Source of the DNA: Escherichia phage vB_Eco_Mak
DNA length: 40,137 bases
Strand: one strand, 5' to 3'
Sequence record: OX001577
Shown: positions 1 through 40,137 of the stretch, one piece after another
Layout of the letters: every line of letters starts with the position of its first letter
Numbering within the stretch: the stretch's first letter is position 1
The notes under the pieces: model-generated
Told to the model about the DNA's origin: nothing
Seen by the model: the letters and a program-made list of their open reading frames with translations, nothing else
The model's database searches: none
Position numbers and translations under genes: made by a program

Positions 1-111
1 GATAATCAAGCAACACTGCTGGTCTTGTTGTACTACGCAACTGCAAATGTAGTCGGGACGATGAAACTGCTATCCCTAAAGTTCTTTAACAATCTGGTAT
101 AAAGCGCATGT

Positions 112-166
112 GTTGAGTTAGAAAGTGATTGACTCAAGGCTGCTGAATGTAGTAGCCTTTATGACA
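112..166 (+). promoter_or_regulatory. RNase III-type processing hairpin upstream of RNAP gene
   Basis: TCTTTAACAATCTGGTA...GTTGAGTTAGAAAGTGATTGACTCAAGGCTGCTGAATGTAGTAGCCTTTATGA resembles the remembered T7 R0.3 site; stem AAGGCTGCT/AGTAGCCTT. Confidence 0.5.
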
Positions 167-206
167 AGCATTTAATTTCAGCCACTATAAGATGGAGACA
201 ACAACA

Positions 207-2891
207 ATGATTAACTTTGATAACATTCAGCGTAATGACTTCTCTGATGTGAAGAACGCCATTATGCCATTCAACGTACTGGCTGATGCTTACGGTGAAT
301 ATCTGGCAGGTGAACAACTGCGCTTAGAGCATGAGTCCTACCAGATGGGCGAGGAACGTTTCATCAAGGCGTTCGAGTCTGCCTGTAAGCGCGGTGAACT
401 CGGTGATTCTCTGGTGGCTCGCCCGTTACTGGAAACCTTGGTTCCTGCACTGAGTGAAGCAACTAAAGCATTCTTAGCTCAAGGTGGTCGTGGTCGTCCG
501 CATGTGTCTAAGCAATACCTGAGCCGTATTGACACCGACCTTGCTGCCTTTATCACCATCAAAGTTGTGCTGATGTCCTTGGGTTCTCCTGCGACAGGCA
601 AAGTAAACAACCACGGTGCTGTAACTGGTGCTAACATGCAGTCAGTCTGTATGTCTATCTCCAAGGCTATCGAGGAGGAGTGCCGCTTCGGTCGCATTCG
701 TGAAGAAGAAGCACAGCATTTCAAGAATCGCGTTAAACCATCGCTGGATAAGCGCCAAGGTCTGCTGTACAAGCGTGAGTACATGAAGGCTGTTGAAGCT
801 GGCATGATTGCTAAAGGCGAGTTGGATAGTCACTTTGAGGAGTGGCCGCGCGATGAAGCATACCATGTTGGTGTCAAGATGTTGGAGCTGCTGATTGAAT
901 CAACTGGTCTGTGCGAGATTGTACGCAAGAACGCTGGTAATCCTAAGTTAGACCGCTACGAAGTGGAACTGACCGAAGAATACGCTGACAAGCTGACCTC
1001 TCGTGTGTCTGCCTTGGCTGGTATCTCACCTGTTAAGCAACCTTGTGTAGTACCACCTAAGCCTTGGACTGGTATCATCGGCGGTGGCTATTGGGCAAAA
1101 GGTCGCAAGCCTTTGCGTCTGATTCGTACCGGAACTAAACGCGCTCTGATGCGCTACAACGATGTGGATATGCCAGATGTGTACAAAGCTATCAACATCA
1201 TTCAGAACACCGCTTGGAAGGTCAATGCGGACGTGCTGAAGGTAGCTAACGAGATTGTCTACTGGAAGCATTGCCCTGTTGAAGACATCCCACAACTGGA
1301 CAAGCTGGATAAACCTGTACGTCCTGAAGGTATTGATGAAGATGAAGCCCTGCTGAAGAAGTGGAAGAAGAACGCTGCGACCATCTACCGCAAGGAGAAA
1401 GCCCGTCAGTCTCGCCGCTTGTCTCTTGACTTCATGATGGCACAAGCTAACAAGTTCGCTCAGTACGATGCCATTTGGTTCCCGTACACAATGGACTGGC
1501 GCGGTCGTGTATATGCTGAGCCAATGTTTAACCCACAAGGTAACGACCTGACCAAAGGTCTGTTAACTTTCGCTAACGGCTGTGAGCTGGGTTCTGAAGG
1601 TGCTTACTGGCTGGCGGTGCATGGCTCCAACTGTGCGGGTGTCGATAAAGTATCACTGGACGACCGCGTTAAGTGGGTGTACGAGAACGAAGAAAACATC
1701 TTGGCATCCGCTGAGAACCCATTAGACTGCACTTGGTGGGCGGAACAAGACTCCCCATTCTGCTTCTTAGCATTCTGCTTCGAGTGGGCAGGGTACGTTA
1801 AGTCTGGCCGTAGTGAAGGCTATGTGTCTCACCTGCCACTGGCATTCGATGGTACTTGCTCCGGTCTGCAACACTTCTCTGCAATGCTGCGTGATGAAGT
1901 TGGTGGTGCTGCTGTTAACCTGCTGCCTGCTGACAAACCACAAGACATCTACGGTATTGTTGCCCAGAAAGTAAACGTCCTGTTGGAGCGTGACCTGTTG
2001 AACGGCACCGAGGACAGCACCAAGATTGTTGTCGATAAGAAGACAGGTGAACAGATTGAGAAGTTTGTTCTGGGTACACGTAACGCTGCTAAACAATGGC
2101 TGCAACACGGTGTAAACCGTAGCGTAACCAAGCGTTCTGTGATGACTCTGGCATACGGTTCCAAGAAGTACGGCTTTGCCGAGCAAATCATGGAGGATAC
2201 TTTACGTCCTGCCATTGATAAAGGCGAAGGTAATCAGTTCACTGCACCTAACCAAGCTGCAATGTATCTGGCTGGTCTTATCTGGGACTGTGTATCAACT
2301 ACCGTAATCGCTGCGGTACAAGCTATGGAATGGTTGCAGAAGTCCGCTGCTCTGATTAGTTCAGAAGTGCGAGACAAGAAGACCAAGGAGCTGTTAAAGC
2401 CTGCTCTGCCTATTCACTGGACTACTCCTAACGGGTTCCCTGTTTGGTCAGAGTACATGATTCAGGAGGAGAAGCGCATTGAAGCGACTCTGTTTGGTGA
2501 ACTGCGTATCCGCAACACTATCAAGCTGCGTGATACCGCCAAGATTGACGCTCAAGCTCAGGCTTCTGGTATTGCACCTAACTTCATCCATAGCAACGAT
2601 GCGTCTCACCTGCAAATGACCGCTGTGTACTGCCACGATGTGTACGGGATTGTTGACTTTGCATTCATCCACGACTCATTCGGTTGTCACGCTGGTAAAG
2701 CTCACCTGCTGTTCAAAGGTGTGCGTGAGACAATGGTTAAGACTTACAGTGAACACGATGTAATCGCTGAGTTCTATGAGCAATTCGCTGAGCAACTGCA
2801 CGAGTCCCAACTGGACAAGATGCCAGCTCTTCCTGAGAAGGGTAACTTAGACCTGAACGAAATCCTGAAGTCACTGTACACTTTCAGTTAA
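207..2891 (+). CDS. T7-like single-subunit DNA-directed RNA polymerase
   Basis: ORF 192..2891 aligns along its full length with remembered T7 gp1 (e.g. PCVVPPKPWTGI, AIWFPY..MDWRGRVYA, WWAEQDSPFCFLAFCFE, LAFDGTCSGLQHFSAM, RSVTKRSVMTLAYGS, HESQLDKMPALP). The T7 alignment begins at MINFDN, so the second ATG (207) with GGAG 9 nt upstream is the likely start; 192 is the alternative. Confidence 0.95.
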   Translation: MINFDNIQRNDFSDVKNAIMPFNVLADAYGEYLAGEQLRLEHESYQMGEERFIKAFESACKRGELGDSLVARPLLETLVPALSEATKAFLAQGGRGRPHVSKQYLSRIDTDLAAFITIKVVLMSLGSPATGKVNNHGAVTGANMQSVCMSISKAIEEECRFGRIREEEAQHFKNRVKPSLDKRQGLLYKREYMKAVEAGMIAKGELDSHFEEWPRDEAYHVGVKMLELLIESTGLCEIVRKNAGNPKLDRYEVELTEEYADKLTSRVSALAGISPVKQPCVVPPKPWTGIIGGGYWAKGRKPLRLIRTGTKRALMRYNDVDMPDVYKAINIIQNTAWKVNADVLKVANEIVYWKHCPVEDIPQLDKLDKPVRPEGIDEDEALLKKWKKNAATIYRKEKARQSRRLSLDFMMAQANKFAQYDAIWFPYTMDWRGRVYAEPMFNPQGNDLTKGLLTFANGCELGSEGAYWLAVHGSNCAGVDKVSLDDRVKWVYENEENILASAENPLDCTWWAEQDSPFCFLAFCFEWAGYVKSGRSEGYVSHLPLAFDGTCSGLQHFSAMLRDEVGGAAVNLLPADKPQDIYGIVAQKVNVLLERDLLNGTEDSTKIVVDKKTGEQIEKFVLGTRNAAKQWLQHGVNRSVTKRSVMTLAYGSKKYGFAEQIMEDTLRPAIDKGEGNQFTAPNQAAMYLAGLIWDCVSTTVIAAVQAMEWLQKSAALISSEVRDKKTKELLKPALPIHWTTPNGFPVWSEYMIQEEKRIEATLFGELRIRNTIKLRDTAKIDAQAQASGIAPNFIHSNDASHLQMTAVYCHDVYGIVDFAFIHDSFGCHAGKAHLLFKGVRETMVKTYSEHDVIAEFYEQFAEQLHESQLDKMPALPEKGNLDLNEILKSLYTFS

Positions 2892-36775: not shown

Positions 36776-37021
36776 ATGACCGAAAGTGATAACGCTACGC
36801 AAAATCTGAGTAGAAGTCCTTATGGATTATGGTCAGAAATTGAAGGATTGCGTAGTCTGGCAGACACTTTGATAGGTGGAGAGATGCCTATGGAGGTGTA
36901 CAACGCTCTGACTCCTGAGCAAAAGAAGATTACCCTTAACGTAACCAAGGCGTGTTCACAATGTGCTACTGCCTTAGAGAAGTTTCAAGAGGAGGTACTA
37001 AATGTCGGCTGCCCAAAGTAA
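36776..37021 (+). CDS. hypothetical protein
   Basis: 81-aa ORF with RBS AAGGAGG, right after an RNase III-type hairpin; overlaps the terminase large subunit start. No transmembrane segment. Confidence 0.5.
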
Positions 37022-38774
37022 CAAAGACAAACTCATTCTAGCTCGCCTGAAGGCTGACTTTGTGGCGTTCCTCTTTGTCCTGTGGAAAGCGTTGAACCTT
37101 CCTAAGCCTACTCGGTGTCAAATCGACATGGCTAGAAAGCTCGCTGCTGGCTCTGAGAGACGTTTTATCCTTCAGGCATTTCGTGGTATTGGTAAGTCCT
37201 TTATCACCTGTGCGTTCGTTGTATGGAAGCTCTGGAACAATCCTCAGTTGAAGTTCATGATTGTGTCTGCTTCAAAGGAACGTGCTGACGCTAACTCCAT
37301 CTTTATCAAGCGTATCATTGACCTGTTACCGTTCTTGCATGAGCTGAAACCTAAGCCTAACCAACGTGACTCTGTAATCAGCTTTGATGTTGGTCTAGCG
37401 AAACCTGACCACTCTCCTTCAGTTAAGTCTGTTGGTATCACTGGTCAGTTGACTGGTAGCCGTGCTGACATCCTGATTGCGGACGACGTTGAGGTTCCTA
37501 ACAACAGTTCCACACAGGCTGCTCGTGACCGCCTAGGTGAGCTTGTAAAGGAGTTTGACGCTATCTTGAAGCCTGAGGGTACTATCATCTACCTTGGTAC
37601 TCCACAATGCGAAATGACGCTGTACAGAGAGCTTGAGAACCGTGGTTACACTACTACCATCTGGCCTGCTCGTTATCCTAAAGACCGCAAAGACCTTGAG
37701 TCGTACGGCACACGCTTAGCTCCTATGCTTCTGGAAGACCTTGAGGAAAACCCTGAGGCCATGTGGTGGACACCTACTGACCCTGTACGCTTCGATGATG
37801 AAGACCTGCGGGAACGTGAGTTGTCATATGGTAAGGCTGGCTTTGCGTTACAGTTCATGTTGAACCCTAACCTGAGTGATGCCGAGAAGTATCCACTCAA
37901 GTGTCGTGACTTCATTGTGGCGGCTGTAGGTGATGACTTTGCGCCTTTGACCTACCAATGGCTACCTAACCACGAGAACCTAGCTGGGAACGTCCCTGCG
38001 GTGGGTTTGAAGGGAGACACATACCACTACTACCACGTAGCAGATAAGCGCACTGCGGCCTTCTCAGGCAAGATTCTGGCTATTGACCCTAGTGGTCGTG
38101 GTAAGGATGAAACAGGGTATGCTGTCTTGTACTTCCTCAATGGCTACATCTATGTGATGGCTATGGGTGGCTTCCGAGGTGGTTACGATGATGAAACCCT
38201 TGAGAAGCTAGCTAAGGTTGCCAAGCGATGGAAAGTCAATGAGGTTCTGGTGGAAGGTAACTTTGGTGACGGTATGTACCTCAAAGTGTTCTCTCCGGTA
38301 CTGGCTCGTATTCATCCTTGTACGTTGACTGAGACTAAGAGTAAAGGTCAGAAGGAACAACGTATTGCTGATACCATCGAACCTGTCTTAGGTGCTCACC
38401 GTATGGTTATCACTGAGGATGCAATTCGTCACGACTATCAGACTGCTCGTAATATTGATGGTCAGCATGACATTAAGTATTGCTGCATGTATCAACTTAC
38501 ACGTCTGACTCGTGAACGCGGCGCATTGGCTCACGATGACCGTCTGGACGCATTGGCAATCGGGGTGGCATATTTCCTTGAGTCAATCGAGAAAGACGCT
38601 CAGAAAGGCGCTGAGGAGCTTACAGAGGAATGGTTGGAAGACCAACTCAATGCTGAACGCATCAGTGACCAACTGAGTGACTACATTGTGCATCAAGGCG
38701 ATGTGGAAATCCGAGTAGGTTACCAAAATGAGGACGCATATTGGGTCACTAACCTAGTTGGGTTTGACCGGTGA
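37002..38774 (+). CDS. terminase large subunit (T7 gp19-like)
   Basis: Long near-identical stretches to remembered T7 gp19: [151 protein letters not shown]. Confidence 0.95.
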
Positions 38775-38830
38775 TATGTTAACAAAGATGGTTAAATGTT
38801 AACGAATTGAGTAGATTTTTGACCATTTTG

Positions 38831-38853
38831 AATTAACACCCACTATTGGAGTA
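38831..38853 (+). promoter_or_regulatory. phage RNAP promoter near the right genome end
   Basis: AATTAACACCCACTATTGGAGTA, 57 nt after the terminase stop. Confidence 0.6.
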
Positions 38854-38948
38854 TACGACAATAAGAGGGAACATTAAGTCTATAGACACTAGGAGAGTCG
38901 ACCTTAGAGTAGGCACTCAGTCTGACCTTAGTGTTCCCTCTTTGTCTT

Positions 38949-38990
38949 GGGAGTATTCTTCATTATTAGAATAACTCCCTTCTCTTTGTG
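38949..38990 (+). terminator. candidate terminator hairpin downstream of terminase
   Basis: GGGAGTATTCT-TCATTATT-AGAATAACTCCC followed by a T-rich run (TTCTCTTT). Confidence 0.4.
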
Positions 38991-39119
38991 TAGAGACACT
39001 GAGGCGTATCTTGGAGGTGATTGTATGAGGAAGACTACCCTTATGGTCACCTACTATGTGGTTAAAGTTACCTTCTTGGTTTACCTGTTGGTAACCCATG
39101 CTGGCGCTTAATCTCGGTA

Positions 39120-39600
39120 TCCTTATCAGTCTACCTACGATTAAGTGTCTAGTGTCAATACCCTTATGTTAGTGACCTTATGTGTTAACCTTAGGGTAGG
39201 TTGGTCTTAGTGTCGCCTACCTTATGTTGTTAACACTATGTTAGTCCATTTTGTACAACACTAGAAAAATCTGAGTGACCATCTCACATATCAAGACCCA
39301 TTTAATCCCCCCATAGGGGTCAAACCTTATGTCCATCCCTTATGTCATTCCCTAAGTCTATCATTTTGTCTATCAATAGGTTTTAACTCTCGGTTGAGGT
39401 GGGGACAATAGGTGGAGACTATGGGTTTGTATCTCTATGTCTCCCTATCTGTATAGACCTTGTGTCTCCTCTCTATGTCTCTACCCTTATGTCTCCTCTC
39501 TATGTTCTATCAACTAGGCAGCATCCTACCTTATGTTAGACCCTAGGTCAATAACCTTATGTCATAGACCCTATAAATAGACCTTATCTATATAGACCAT
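39120..39600 (+). repeat. array of short CYTTATGT / CTCTATGT motifs flanking the genome end
   Basis: At least 12 copies of CCTTATGT-like octamers (e.g. ACCCTTATGTTAG, GACCTTATGTG, AAACCTTATGTCC, CCCTTATGTCTCC, AACCTTATGTCATAG) at irregular spacing; analogous to the ACCTAAAG repeat arrays at T7 ends. Confidence 0.6.
39283..39446 (+). repeat. predicted genome left terminus and direct terminal repeat (by analogy with T7)
   Basis: TCTCACATATCAAGACCC...CCCCCCATAGGGG parallels the remembered T7 left end (TCTCACAGTGTACGGACC...CCCCCATAGGGGG), and ...CTCTATGTCTCCCT parallels the end of the T7 160-bp terminal repeat (...CTCTGTGTCCCT). Only one copy can be present in a collapsed assembly. Confidence 0.35.
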
Positions 39601-39623
39601 AATTAACACCCACTATTGAAGAA
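39601..39623 (+). promoter_or_regulatory. phage RNAP promoter-like element near the left genome end (variant)
   Basis: AATTAACACCCACTATTGAAGAA (GAAGA instead of GGAGA at the start site), just upstream of the A1-like host promoter. Confidence 0.45.
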
Positions 39624-39653
39624 CAACAATCTTAATTATTTTAATATTGAGTA

Positions 39654-39682
39654 TTGACATTAGAACTTAGTGTCTATAGTAT
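39654..39682 (+). promoter_or_regulatory. host sigma70-type early promoter (T7 A1-like)
   Basis: TTGACA (39654..39659), 17-nt spacer, TAGTAT (39677..39682); flanks (GAGTATTGAC upstream, GGCGTCCATCGAAGGGAAACACGG downstream) resemble remembered T7 A1. Confidence 0.65.
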
Positions 39683-39782
39683 GGCGTCCATCGAAGGGAA
39701 ACACGGAAACGGTGCGACTCTGAGATTACAGCGTCAAGCGGTACAAGTAGACAGCCTGCTAAGTCATACGAACAACAGGTAC

Positions 39783-39811
39783 TTGACAACAGAAACAAGA
39801 AACACTAAGAT
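39783..39811 (+). promoter_or_regulatory. host sigma70-type early promoter (T7 A2-like)
   Basis: TTGACA (39783..39788), 17-nt spacer, TAAGAT (39806..39811); upstream GTAGACAGCCTG.TAAGTC matches the remembered T7 A2 context. Confidence 0.6.
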
Positions 39812-39859
39812 ACACCACAACGAAACAACAACAGAAACACCAACAAATAGGAGTTGACA

Positions 39860-40003
39860 ATGTTCAAGTTAAAATGTAAAGTGATGCCAATCCACAACAA
39901 ACAGGGTCACACAGTATGTACACCTGATGGATTTGCGATGAATGCTCGTGTTGAACGACTGAAGCGTGAACTCAAGATGAATCGTATGCTGAACAACATC
40001 TAA
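39860..40003 (+). CDS. T7 gp0.6-like early protein
   Basis: 47 aa; VMPIHNKQGHTVCTPDGFAMNARVERLKRELKMNR matches remembered T7 gene 0.6 product (VMPIHTSNGATVCTPDGFAMKQRIERLKRELRINR). RBS AGGAG 6 nt upstream. Downstream of two sigma70-type promoters. Confidence 0.6.
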   Translation: MFKLKCKVMPIHNKQGHTVCTPDGFAMNARVERLKRELKMNRMLNNI

Positions 40004-40010
40004 TAGCTAC

Positions 40011-40137
40011 GATAATCAAGCAACACTGCTGGTCTTGTTGTACTACGCAACTGCAAATGTAGTCGGGACGATGAAACTGCTATCCCTAAAGTTCTTTAAC
40101 AATCTGGTATAAAGCGCATGTGTTGAGTTAGAAAGTG
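40011..40137. repeat. exact duplicate of window positions 1..127 (probable assembly wrap-around of a circularly permuted sequence)
   Basis: Positions 40011..40137 are identical to 1..127 by direct comparison. The duplication lies between the gp0.6-like gene and the RNAP gene, not where T7-type terminal repeats reside. Confidence 0.8.

Follow-up and report, generated by a model that had tools for sequence, protein, structure and literature searches.

Fixed direct terminal repeats of the T7 type are merged by short-read assemblers, which open the genome elsewhere (PMC10438801). Placing the ends by alignment to relatives, followed by confirmation with run-off sequencing, is standard practice (PMC4925675). 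The T7 record starts with TCTCACAGTGTACGG...CCCCCATAGGGGG (beginning TCTCACAGTGTACGGACCTAAAGTTCCCCCATAGGGGG), and its 160-bp repeat ends in ...CTCTCTGTGTCCCT (GTGTCTCTCTGTGTCCCT), after which comes ATCTGTT. This heptamer is the conserved core of a class II signal, which makes T7 RNA polymerase pause or terminate a few nucleotides downstream. The signal requires ATCTGTT in the non-template strand with A, C, or T before it, and changing any of its bases reportedly destroys it for this enzyme. At the concatemer junction, the paused polymerase-lysozyme complex is reported to engage gp18/gp19, starting maturation and packaging (PMC3276506). In a second characterized system, phage JELG-KS1, PhageTerm analysis located a 185-bp repeat, which Sanger run-off sequencing of virion DNA then confirmed; the phages Titus, Bam, and Mak are listed among the closest relatives of JELG-KS1 (PMC10974468).

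Here, we analyzed a window of 40,137 nucleotides (the whole stretch of DNA under study, Escherichia phage vB_Eco_Mak, record OX001577), within which the original prediction had placed a genome terminus of the T7 type. Boundary homology to T7, JELG-KS1, and other relatives, together with colinear surroundings, supports that placement. We conclude that the interval at 38.8-39.9 kb is very probably the concatemer junction of a T7-like (Studiervirinae) coliphage, the linear genome of which, with direct terminal repeats, was assembled as a circle.

Source contig and phage identity

Comparison of both window ends revealed that the first 127 nt are identical to the last 127 nt. This identity implies that the contig is a circularized assembly in which the terminal repeat was merged. 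This leaves 40,010 bp of unique sequence, which is also the length of the vB_Eco_Titus record (OX090892). The junction region is 100% identical to that of Escherichia phage vB_Eco_Titus and 99.9% identical to that of vB_Eco_Bam (OW991346.2), both of which are assigned to Autographiviridae; Studiervirinae and are unclassified within Studiervirinae. The Titus and Bam records are opened at arbitrary points, and the terminal repeat is annotated in neither. Across 38.8-39.9 kb, both records call small "hypothetical proteins," four or five in number. An exact-protein look-up of the terminase for further assemblies of this phage returned only the two NCBI records, and exact-pattern scans of IMG/VR and JGI metagenome contigs found no additional relatives of the lineage.

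The machinery encoded in the window is of the T7 type: the RNA polymerase is of the single-subunit kind, the large terminase is of the T7 type, and the small terminase is of the gp18 type. Pfam matches among the called genes are to RNA_pol/RPOL_N, Terminase-T7_RNaseH-like, and DNA_Packaging_2. At about 80% amino acid identity, the nearest relatives of the terminase are found in the Vibrio phages N4, VP4, and ICP3 (Chatterjeevirus) and in the Aeromonas phages T7-Ah and JELG-KS1. The junction interval is bounded by the large terminase gene (end at 38774) on one side and, on the other, by the early promoters that precede the RNA polymerase gene. Its layout is colinear with that of T7: the terminase gene is followed by a phage promoter, a first set of short repeats, the terminal repeat, a second set of short repeats, another phage promoter, and the A1-/A2-like host promoters (Table 1).

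Table 1. Features of the predicted concatemer junction and related elements, in window coordinates
Feature	Position	Strand	Details
RNA polymerase gene	192-2891		
T7-type large terminase gene	37002-38774		Stop at 38774
Phage RNA polymerase promoter, T7 phiOR position	38831..38853	+	AATTAACACCCACTATTGGAGTA; exact consensus
Long imperfect hairpin in the transcript of the phiOR-like promoter	38857..38946	+	Inverted repeat I4: 16 nt, 94% complementary
Putative 28-codon hydrophobic ORF	39025..39111	+	Ribosome-binding site GGAGGTGATTGTATG, strong; shares the frame of the longer ORF 38947-39111
Short-repeat array, right-end side of repeat	39162..39243	+	CCTTATGT at 39162, 39176, 39220, plus CACTATGT
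Conserved motif GAAAAATCTGAGTGACCA	39264..39281	+	Abuts the repeat on its left side
Predicted direct terminal repeat, 165 bp, one copy	39282..39446	.	Homology at both boundaries to repeats that are annotated or were mapped by experiment
C6-ATA-G4 interrupted inverted repeat	39307..39319	.	CCCCCCATAGGGG; 26 nt inside the repeat
Octamers inside the repeat	39325..39357	+	CCTTATGT at 39325, 39338; CCCTAAGT at 39350; just past the C-run element
ATCTGTA, first bases past the repeat	39447..39453	+	In T7, the class II signal ATCTGTT of the concatemer junction stands here
Short-repeat array, left-end side	39458..39589	+	CCTTGTGT, CTCTATGT, CCTTATGT, CTCTATGT, CCTTATGT, CCTTATGT, CCTTATCT
Leftward sigma-70-like promoter	39523..39551	-	TTGACC-17-TAGGAT; consensus scan 9/12, weak; inside short-repeat array
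Phage RNA polymerase promoter, T7 phiOL position	39601..39623	+	AATTAACACCCACTATTGAAGAA; exact consensus; aligns with T7 phiOL region
Host-type promoter, homologous to T7 A1	39654-39682	+	TTGACA-17-TAGTAT; consensus scan 10/12
Host-type promoter, homologous to T7 A2	39783-39811	+	TTGACA-17-TAAGAT; consensus scan 10/12
End overlap, copy of window 1-127	40011..40137	.	Assembler overlap left on circle closure; not a biological repeat

Predicted boundaries of the terminal repeat

The T7-like strings on which the original prediction was built are all present, with CCCCCCATAGGGG at 39307-39319 and CTCTATGTCTCCCT ending exactly at 39446. The T7-like start, TCTCACATATC / TCTCACATATCAAGACCC, begins at 39282, and the 18-mer GAAAAATCTGAGTGACCA stands directly ahead of it. 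With the boundary written as a slash, GAAAAATCTGAGTGACCA/TCTCA is identical to the boundary at the right-hand repeat of JELG-KS1. The 18-mer has 16/18 identity to its counterparts in T7, Yanou, and phiA1122, where the boundary reads AAAAATCTGAGTGACTA/TCTCACA; that of PcCB251 reads AAAAATCTGAGTGAGTA/TCTCATA. In all four of these phages (T7, Yanou, phiA1122, and PcCB251), the annotated repeat begins at the base homologous to 39282, and in Pseudomonas phage 3MF5, the annotated start lies 2 nt earlier than the homologous base. The conserved left cleavage context, AAAATCTGAG-GA--A/TCTCA, is thus found in the window, and a homologous repeat start is found in five relatives.

Searching with a 45-nt query (24-mer match) identified the boundary motif in 249 phage records, nearly all of them T7-like, typically at 148-277 nt from the right end of the record. 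In complete records, this distance equals the length of the repeat (160 for T7, 159 for Yanou, and 148 for phiA1122). As far as homology allows, the comparisons support a left end at 39282. The start that had been expected near 39283 was confirmed as T7-like against the T7 record, with the actual base one position off. The 18-mer GAAAAATCTGAGTGACCA is probably part of the recognition/cleavage site that creates the mature left end. Within the repeat, a C-run at the position of the 39307-39319 element is present in every relative examined (the T7 equivalent is CCCCCATAGGGGG), and phage Bam has one extra C there. The 18-mer before 39282 and this C-run element are most likely the candidate protein recognition elements of the junction.

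At the other side, the last base of CTCTATGTCTCCCT is 39446, and ATCTGTA follows. The junction reads ...GTATCTCTATGTCTCCCT/ATCTGTATAGACC in the window and ...GTGTCTCTCTGTGTCCCT/ATCTGTTACAGTC in T7, so that ..TCTCCCT/ATCTGTA and ..GTCCCT/ATCTGTT match on both sides of the boundary. As had been predicted, the end near 39446 mirrors the end of the T7 repeat, ..TCCCT/ATCTGT being common to both. The JELG-KS1 repeat is followed by ATCTGTATGGG, and the VP4 record, which ends in a single repeat copy, begins with ATCTGTATTC. These two phages match the window on the downstream side only (/ATCTGTA), and the JELG-KS1 repeat ends without a T7-like ..CCCT; the proposed right boundary thus draws on fewer comparisons than the left one.

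It is conceivable that the termini lie here but that the boundaries differ, for example, with a right boundary tens of bases away and a repeat length other than 165 bp. Repeat length does vary among the relatives examined (148-277 bp), and a second boundary-like sequence, CCTTATCTATATAGACC at 39582-39598, is 88% identical to CCCTATCTGTATAGACC at 39443-39459 (D16). However, the copy at 39582 is without the ATCTGT core, ATCTGTA being present once on the + strand, and 39446/39447 matches T7 on both sides and JELG-KS1 and VP4 downstream, which amounts to two independent comparisons. We consider a shifted boundary improbable and retain 39282 as the predicted mature left end and 39446 as the predicted mature right end.

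The segment between them (39282-39446) is present in a single copy within the window, and this copy would represent two terminal copies merged by the assembler. In a global alignment to the 160-bp repeat of T7, it has 104 identities in 174 columns, with a score of 78.5 versus 2.3 +/- 9.9 for 500 shuffles (z = 7.7). A direct terminal repeat of about 160 bp, collapsed to one copy, had been proposed; the single copy and the homologous boundaries bear this out, and the predicted length becomes 165 bp, inside the range of the relatives.

A different reading takes the region to be no more than a relic or a regulatory segment, comprising promoters and secondary replication origins, and supposes that the phage packages its DNA otherwise, for example, by a headful mechanism with permuted ends. 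The promoters are there, and circular closure of an assembly also occurs with permuted genomes. Yet, the phage encodes a T7-type terminase pair, every cleavage-site feature of phages with mapped fixed ends is conserved to the base, and T7-like phages are described with fixed direct terminal repeats that short-read assemblers routinely merge (PMC10438801, PMC4925675). We judge this reading to be extremely improbable compared with a T7-type terminus.

A putative signal directly past the repeat

ATCTGT(T/A) stands directly past the repeat in the window, as it does in T7, JELG-KS1, and VP4. Across the 40,010-bp genome, ATCTGT[AT] occurs once on the + strand (at 39447) and eight times on the - strand; the counts are the same in T7, where the sole + strand copy is at 161, the first base past the repeat. 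JELG-KS1 has its only + strand copy at 186, and VP4 has three + strand copies, one of which is at the junction. Measured against the class II core, T-ATCTGTA agrees at 6/7 bases and falls outside the core at the seventh. Because this base differs and any change is reported to abolish the T7 signal, we only infer that ATCTGTA acts as a pause signal for the polymerase of this phage, as a lineage-specific variant. Such a function is made plausible by JELG-KS1 and VP4, which share this variant at the corresponding position.

We also considered whether counter-selection of ATCTGT on the transcribed strand provides evidence for a pause signal. The strands are asymmetric (2 versus 10 copies in the window and 3 versus 15 in T7), but ATCTGT ranks 209th of 3,158 hexamers for strand bias, a ranking made in a genome with all genes on one strand. 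Because of this rank, we rejected the asymmetry as evidence and kept positional conservation alone.

Short-repeat arrays

The literal octamer CYTTATGT occurs eight times in 39120-39600 (span 39162-39562), every copy being CCTTATGT and on the + strand, and six times elsewhere in the 40 kb on both strands; the chance expectation for the whole window is 2.4. Allowing one mismatch gives 10 copies in 39120-39600, or 11 counted from 39030, and the YTATGT core alone gives 12 on the + strand and 0 on the - strand. The earlier count of "at least 12" octamers of this type is therefore reached under the YTATGT core and is too high for the strict motif. Clustering is strong, with 8/9 of the + strand copies in the genome lying within 401 nt (Poisson P about 5e-20). 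The exact copies of CCTTATGT are split into three before the repeat, two inside it, and three after it, with 0 on the - strand.

The arrays had been described as analogous to those of T7, and the arrangement agrees: same-strand copies lie before, inside, and after the repeat, as CCTAAAG does in T7. By local alignment to T7 39659-39775, the array at 39162-39243 is the counterpart of the CCTAAAG copies upstream of the right repeat, which in T7 are at -106 and -77 relative to the repeat start. The octamers inside the repeat parallel three CCTAAAG copies and CCCTAAGG inside the T7 repeat. The array at 39458-39589, which is partly built of 26-28-nt tandem units, corresponds to the CCTAAAG array that T7 has at 175-332. 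Each lineage has a repeat unit of its own: T7 has CCTAAAG, VP4 has CATCAAG, JELG-KS1 has CATTAGGT, and the unit here is CCTTATGT.

A search of the accessible literature found no documented function for the T7 short-repeat arrays, and their role in T7 is not known to have been established. There is a real chance, although we do not favor it, that the terminus is correctly placed but the CCTTATGT arrays are unrelated to concatemer processing or packaging, serving instead in the binding of a host protein or polymerase, as the context of an A0-like promoter, or in the control of genome entry. In addition to the silence of the literature, this would fit with the difference in repeat unit among T7, VP4, and JELG-KS1 and with one octamer copy that contributes to the -10/spacer of the leftward sigma-70-like promoter. 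What speaks for a role tied to the junction is that the arrays keep their position, flanking the repeat on both sides in every lineage examined, despite the changed unit. We therefore view the arrays as probably accessory binding or spacing elements of the junction; that they are bound by a coevolving phage protein is speculation.

Flanking promoters and coding content

The phage promoter core TTAACACCCACTAT occurs 12 times in exact form in the window, always on the + strand, and variants are present as well; searching at up to 3 mismatches gives 22 matches versus 3.8 expected. The copy at 38831 lies 57 nt past the terminase stop and 451 nt ahead of the repeat, and T7 phiOR likewise follows gene 19. 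Together with the promoter at 39601, it forms a pair (repeat family D10) that brackets the junction. The interval 39600-39834 is colinear with T7 388-643, which contains phiOL, A1, and A2 (score of 119.5 versus 26.6 +/- 4.3 for shuffled sequences). By its position, the weak leftward site at 39523-39551 may correspond to the T7 leftward promoter A0, which is annotated at 224 and is also inside a short-repeat array.

The hairpin downstream of the phiOR-like promoter (38857-38946) has a predicted RNA fold of -36.3 kcal/mol (z = -2.7 versus shuffles). No Rfam family matched in 38600-40137, this hairpin included, and no intrinsic terminator was found.

T7, JELG-KS1, Yanou, and phiA1122 have an ORF of about 49 amino acids at the position of gene 19.5, and the short ORF at 39025-39111 may sit at this position, an assignment that is uncertain. 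A search of PHROG families against all ORFs in 38846-39857, including 39025-39111, gave no match. On this basis, the small ORFs that both public records annotate were rejected as real genes, and the interval 38846-39857 appears to have no credible coding content. The first real early gene is at 39860-40003 (phrog_8393; Pfam Phage_T7_0_6).

Proposed processing and implications

The window contains the single repeat, its T7-type boundaries, the same-strand octamers, the bracketing promoters, and ATCTGTA; the processing steps that follow are modeled on T7. Replication would yield head-to-tail concatemers with one repeat copy between neighboring genomes. Phage RNA polymerase starting from the phiOR-like promoter would move rightward across the repeat and pause just past it, at ATCTGTA (39447), and the paused complex would recruit the gp18/gp19 terminase and the prohead. 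The DNA would then be cleaved at the two boundaries, left of 39282 and right of 39446, with the repeat duplicated by DNA synthesis. The resulting virion chromosome would start with TCTCACA... (TCTCACATATC), end with ...TCTCCCT (CTATGTCTCCCT), carry the repeat at both of its blunt, fixed ends, and measure about 40,175 bp.

A broader and rather doubtful idea is that the branch comprising Titus/Bam, JELG-KS1, and Chatterjeevirus uses a variant pause signal, ATCTGTA, read by its own RNA polymerases, plus lineage-private short repeats (CCTTATGT here) as a coevolving recognition code for packaging proteins. If this were true, cross-lineage comparison could assign a function to the short-repeat arrays of T7. 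On a smaller scale, the comparison hints that the junction pause signal may tolerate a T-to-A change at its last base in some lineages.

For curation, ends at 39282/39446 would allow the records to be reoriented, the virion length to be given as about 40,175 bp, and spurious genes to be removed. For biology, the locus adds one further lineage to the well-known T7-type junction pattern.

Comparison with known systems

Within the VP4/ICP3 group (Chatterjeevirus), the boundary is AAAAATCTGAGAGACCA/TCTCA, and the VP4 record, which holds one repeat copy and is without a repeat annotation, begins with ATCTGTA directly past the repeat. VP4 differs in its short-repeat unit, CATCAAG, and in that ATCTGT[AT], with three copies, is not unique on its + strand.

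JELG-KS1 is among the closest characterized relatives (about 79% terminase identity). It shares with the window the 18 nt before the repeat and the TCTCA that follows, as well as an ATCTGTA past the repeat that is unique on the + strand. Its repeat is 185 bp, with an interior and a right end that are not alignable to those of the window, its repeat unit is CATTAGGT, and its host is Aeromonas.

The likeness to T7 extends across the whole junction. In both phages, the junction lies past gene 19 and ahead of the early promoters, the repeat starts with TCTCACA (preceded by AAAAATCTGAGTGAC), a C-run/G-run element lies about 25 nt into the repeat, and the repeat ends in ..TCCCT followed by ATCTGT. 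Same-strand short repeats lie outside and inside the repeat, and phiOL, A1, and A2 are colinear. The two phages differ in repeat length (165 bp here versus 160 bp in T7, with about 60% identity overall), in the short-repeat unit (CCTTATGT versus CCTAAAG, with fewer copies here, eight by the strict count), and in the signal past the repeat (ATCTGTA versus ATCTGTT). They also differ in promoter consensus (TTAACACCCACTAT versus TACGACTCACTAT in T7) and in the distance from the repeat to phiOL (155 nt versus about 227 nt in T7). Set beside these systems, the locus is an ordinary, well-understood T7-type terminus, and what is new is its placement in a lineage whose public records leave it unannotated.

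Genome ends in the assembly and in related records

Exactly 127 nt at the start of the window recur unchanged at its end; a biological repeat was rejected as the source of this identity, which is an overlap left by the assembler at circular closure. With the overlap counted once, the unique sequence comes to 40,010 bp, the same as in the vB_Eco_Titus (Titus) record. Inside the terminal repeat, the window and Titus have a run of six C residues where vB_Eco_Bam (Bam) has seven (around position 2030 of the Bam locus L007), the sole difference in 1.1 kb, and this variation reflects either an error in sequencing a homopolymer or a genuine polymorphism in a conserved element.

Two related records are further cases of mis-set termini within the clade. 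The RefSeq record of Vibrio phage VP4 (NC_007149; loci L009/L010) contains just one copy of the repeat, placed at the right end, and its first base is the one that follows the repeat; the record of Aeromonas phage T7-Ah (MT740748; locus L011) opens about 170 nt upstream of its left end, TCTCATTG.

Annotation and regulatory elements around the terminal repeat

In the public Titus and Bam records, four to five small "hypothetical proteins" are annotated over the terminal repeat, the short-repeat arrays, and the early promoters. The two annotations conflict in strand and coordinates, no PHROG family match was found for these proteins, and they look like spurious gene calls.

Features of the window. 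L006 and L007 are the loci in the Titus and Bam records.
Feature	Position	Strand	Detail
Identical ends	1-127; 40011-40137		
Variant phage promoter	9259-9281		AATTAACCCTGACTATTGGAAAC
Annotated small ORFs	38846-39857		Titus_045-049; BAMTRB_048-052 (L006/L007)
Hairpin	38857-38946		16-nt arms, 94% complementary; -36.3 kcal/mol, z = -2.7
Hydrophobic ORF	39025-39111		28 codons
C-run	39307-39312		
Leftward sigma-70-like promoter	39523-39551	-	TTGACC-17-TAGGAT
Early region	39860 through the contig join to 191		about 330 nt

Directly 3' of the phiOR-like promoter lies a long hairpin, which may be a processing site of the RNase III type, or may be related to the hairpin intermediate proposed in T7 right-end formation. 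The hydrophobic ORF has a strong ribosome-binding site and occupies the place where T7 and its relatives carry gene 19.5 (about 49 amino acids); it matched no family and is perhaps a shorter equivalent of that gene.

Among the phage promoters, a variant copy is intergenic, ahead of a ribosome-binding site and the start codon that follows. The bases of this copy from -11 to -8 agree with the T7-Ah promoter AATTAACCCTGACTATAGGGAGA (locus L012) and not with the phage's own consensus, ACACCCAC.

From the A-type promoters to the RNA polymerase gene, the early region is very short and holds a single gene, which is T7 0.6-like, with no space for a counterpart of either gene 0.3 (Ocr) or the gene 0.7 kinase of T7. 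Part of the sequence of the leftward promoter is supplied by a reverse-complemented copy of the octamer, the short repeat of this lineage. This putative promoter is similar to A0 of T7, another leftward promoter located within the left short-repeat array.
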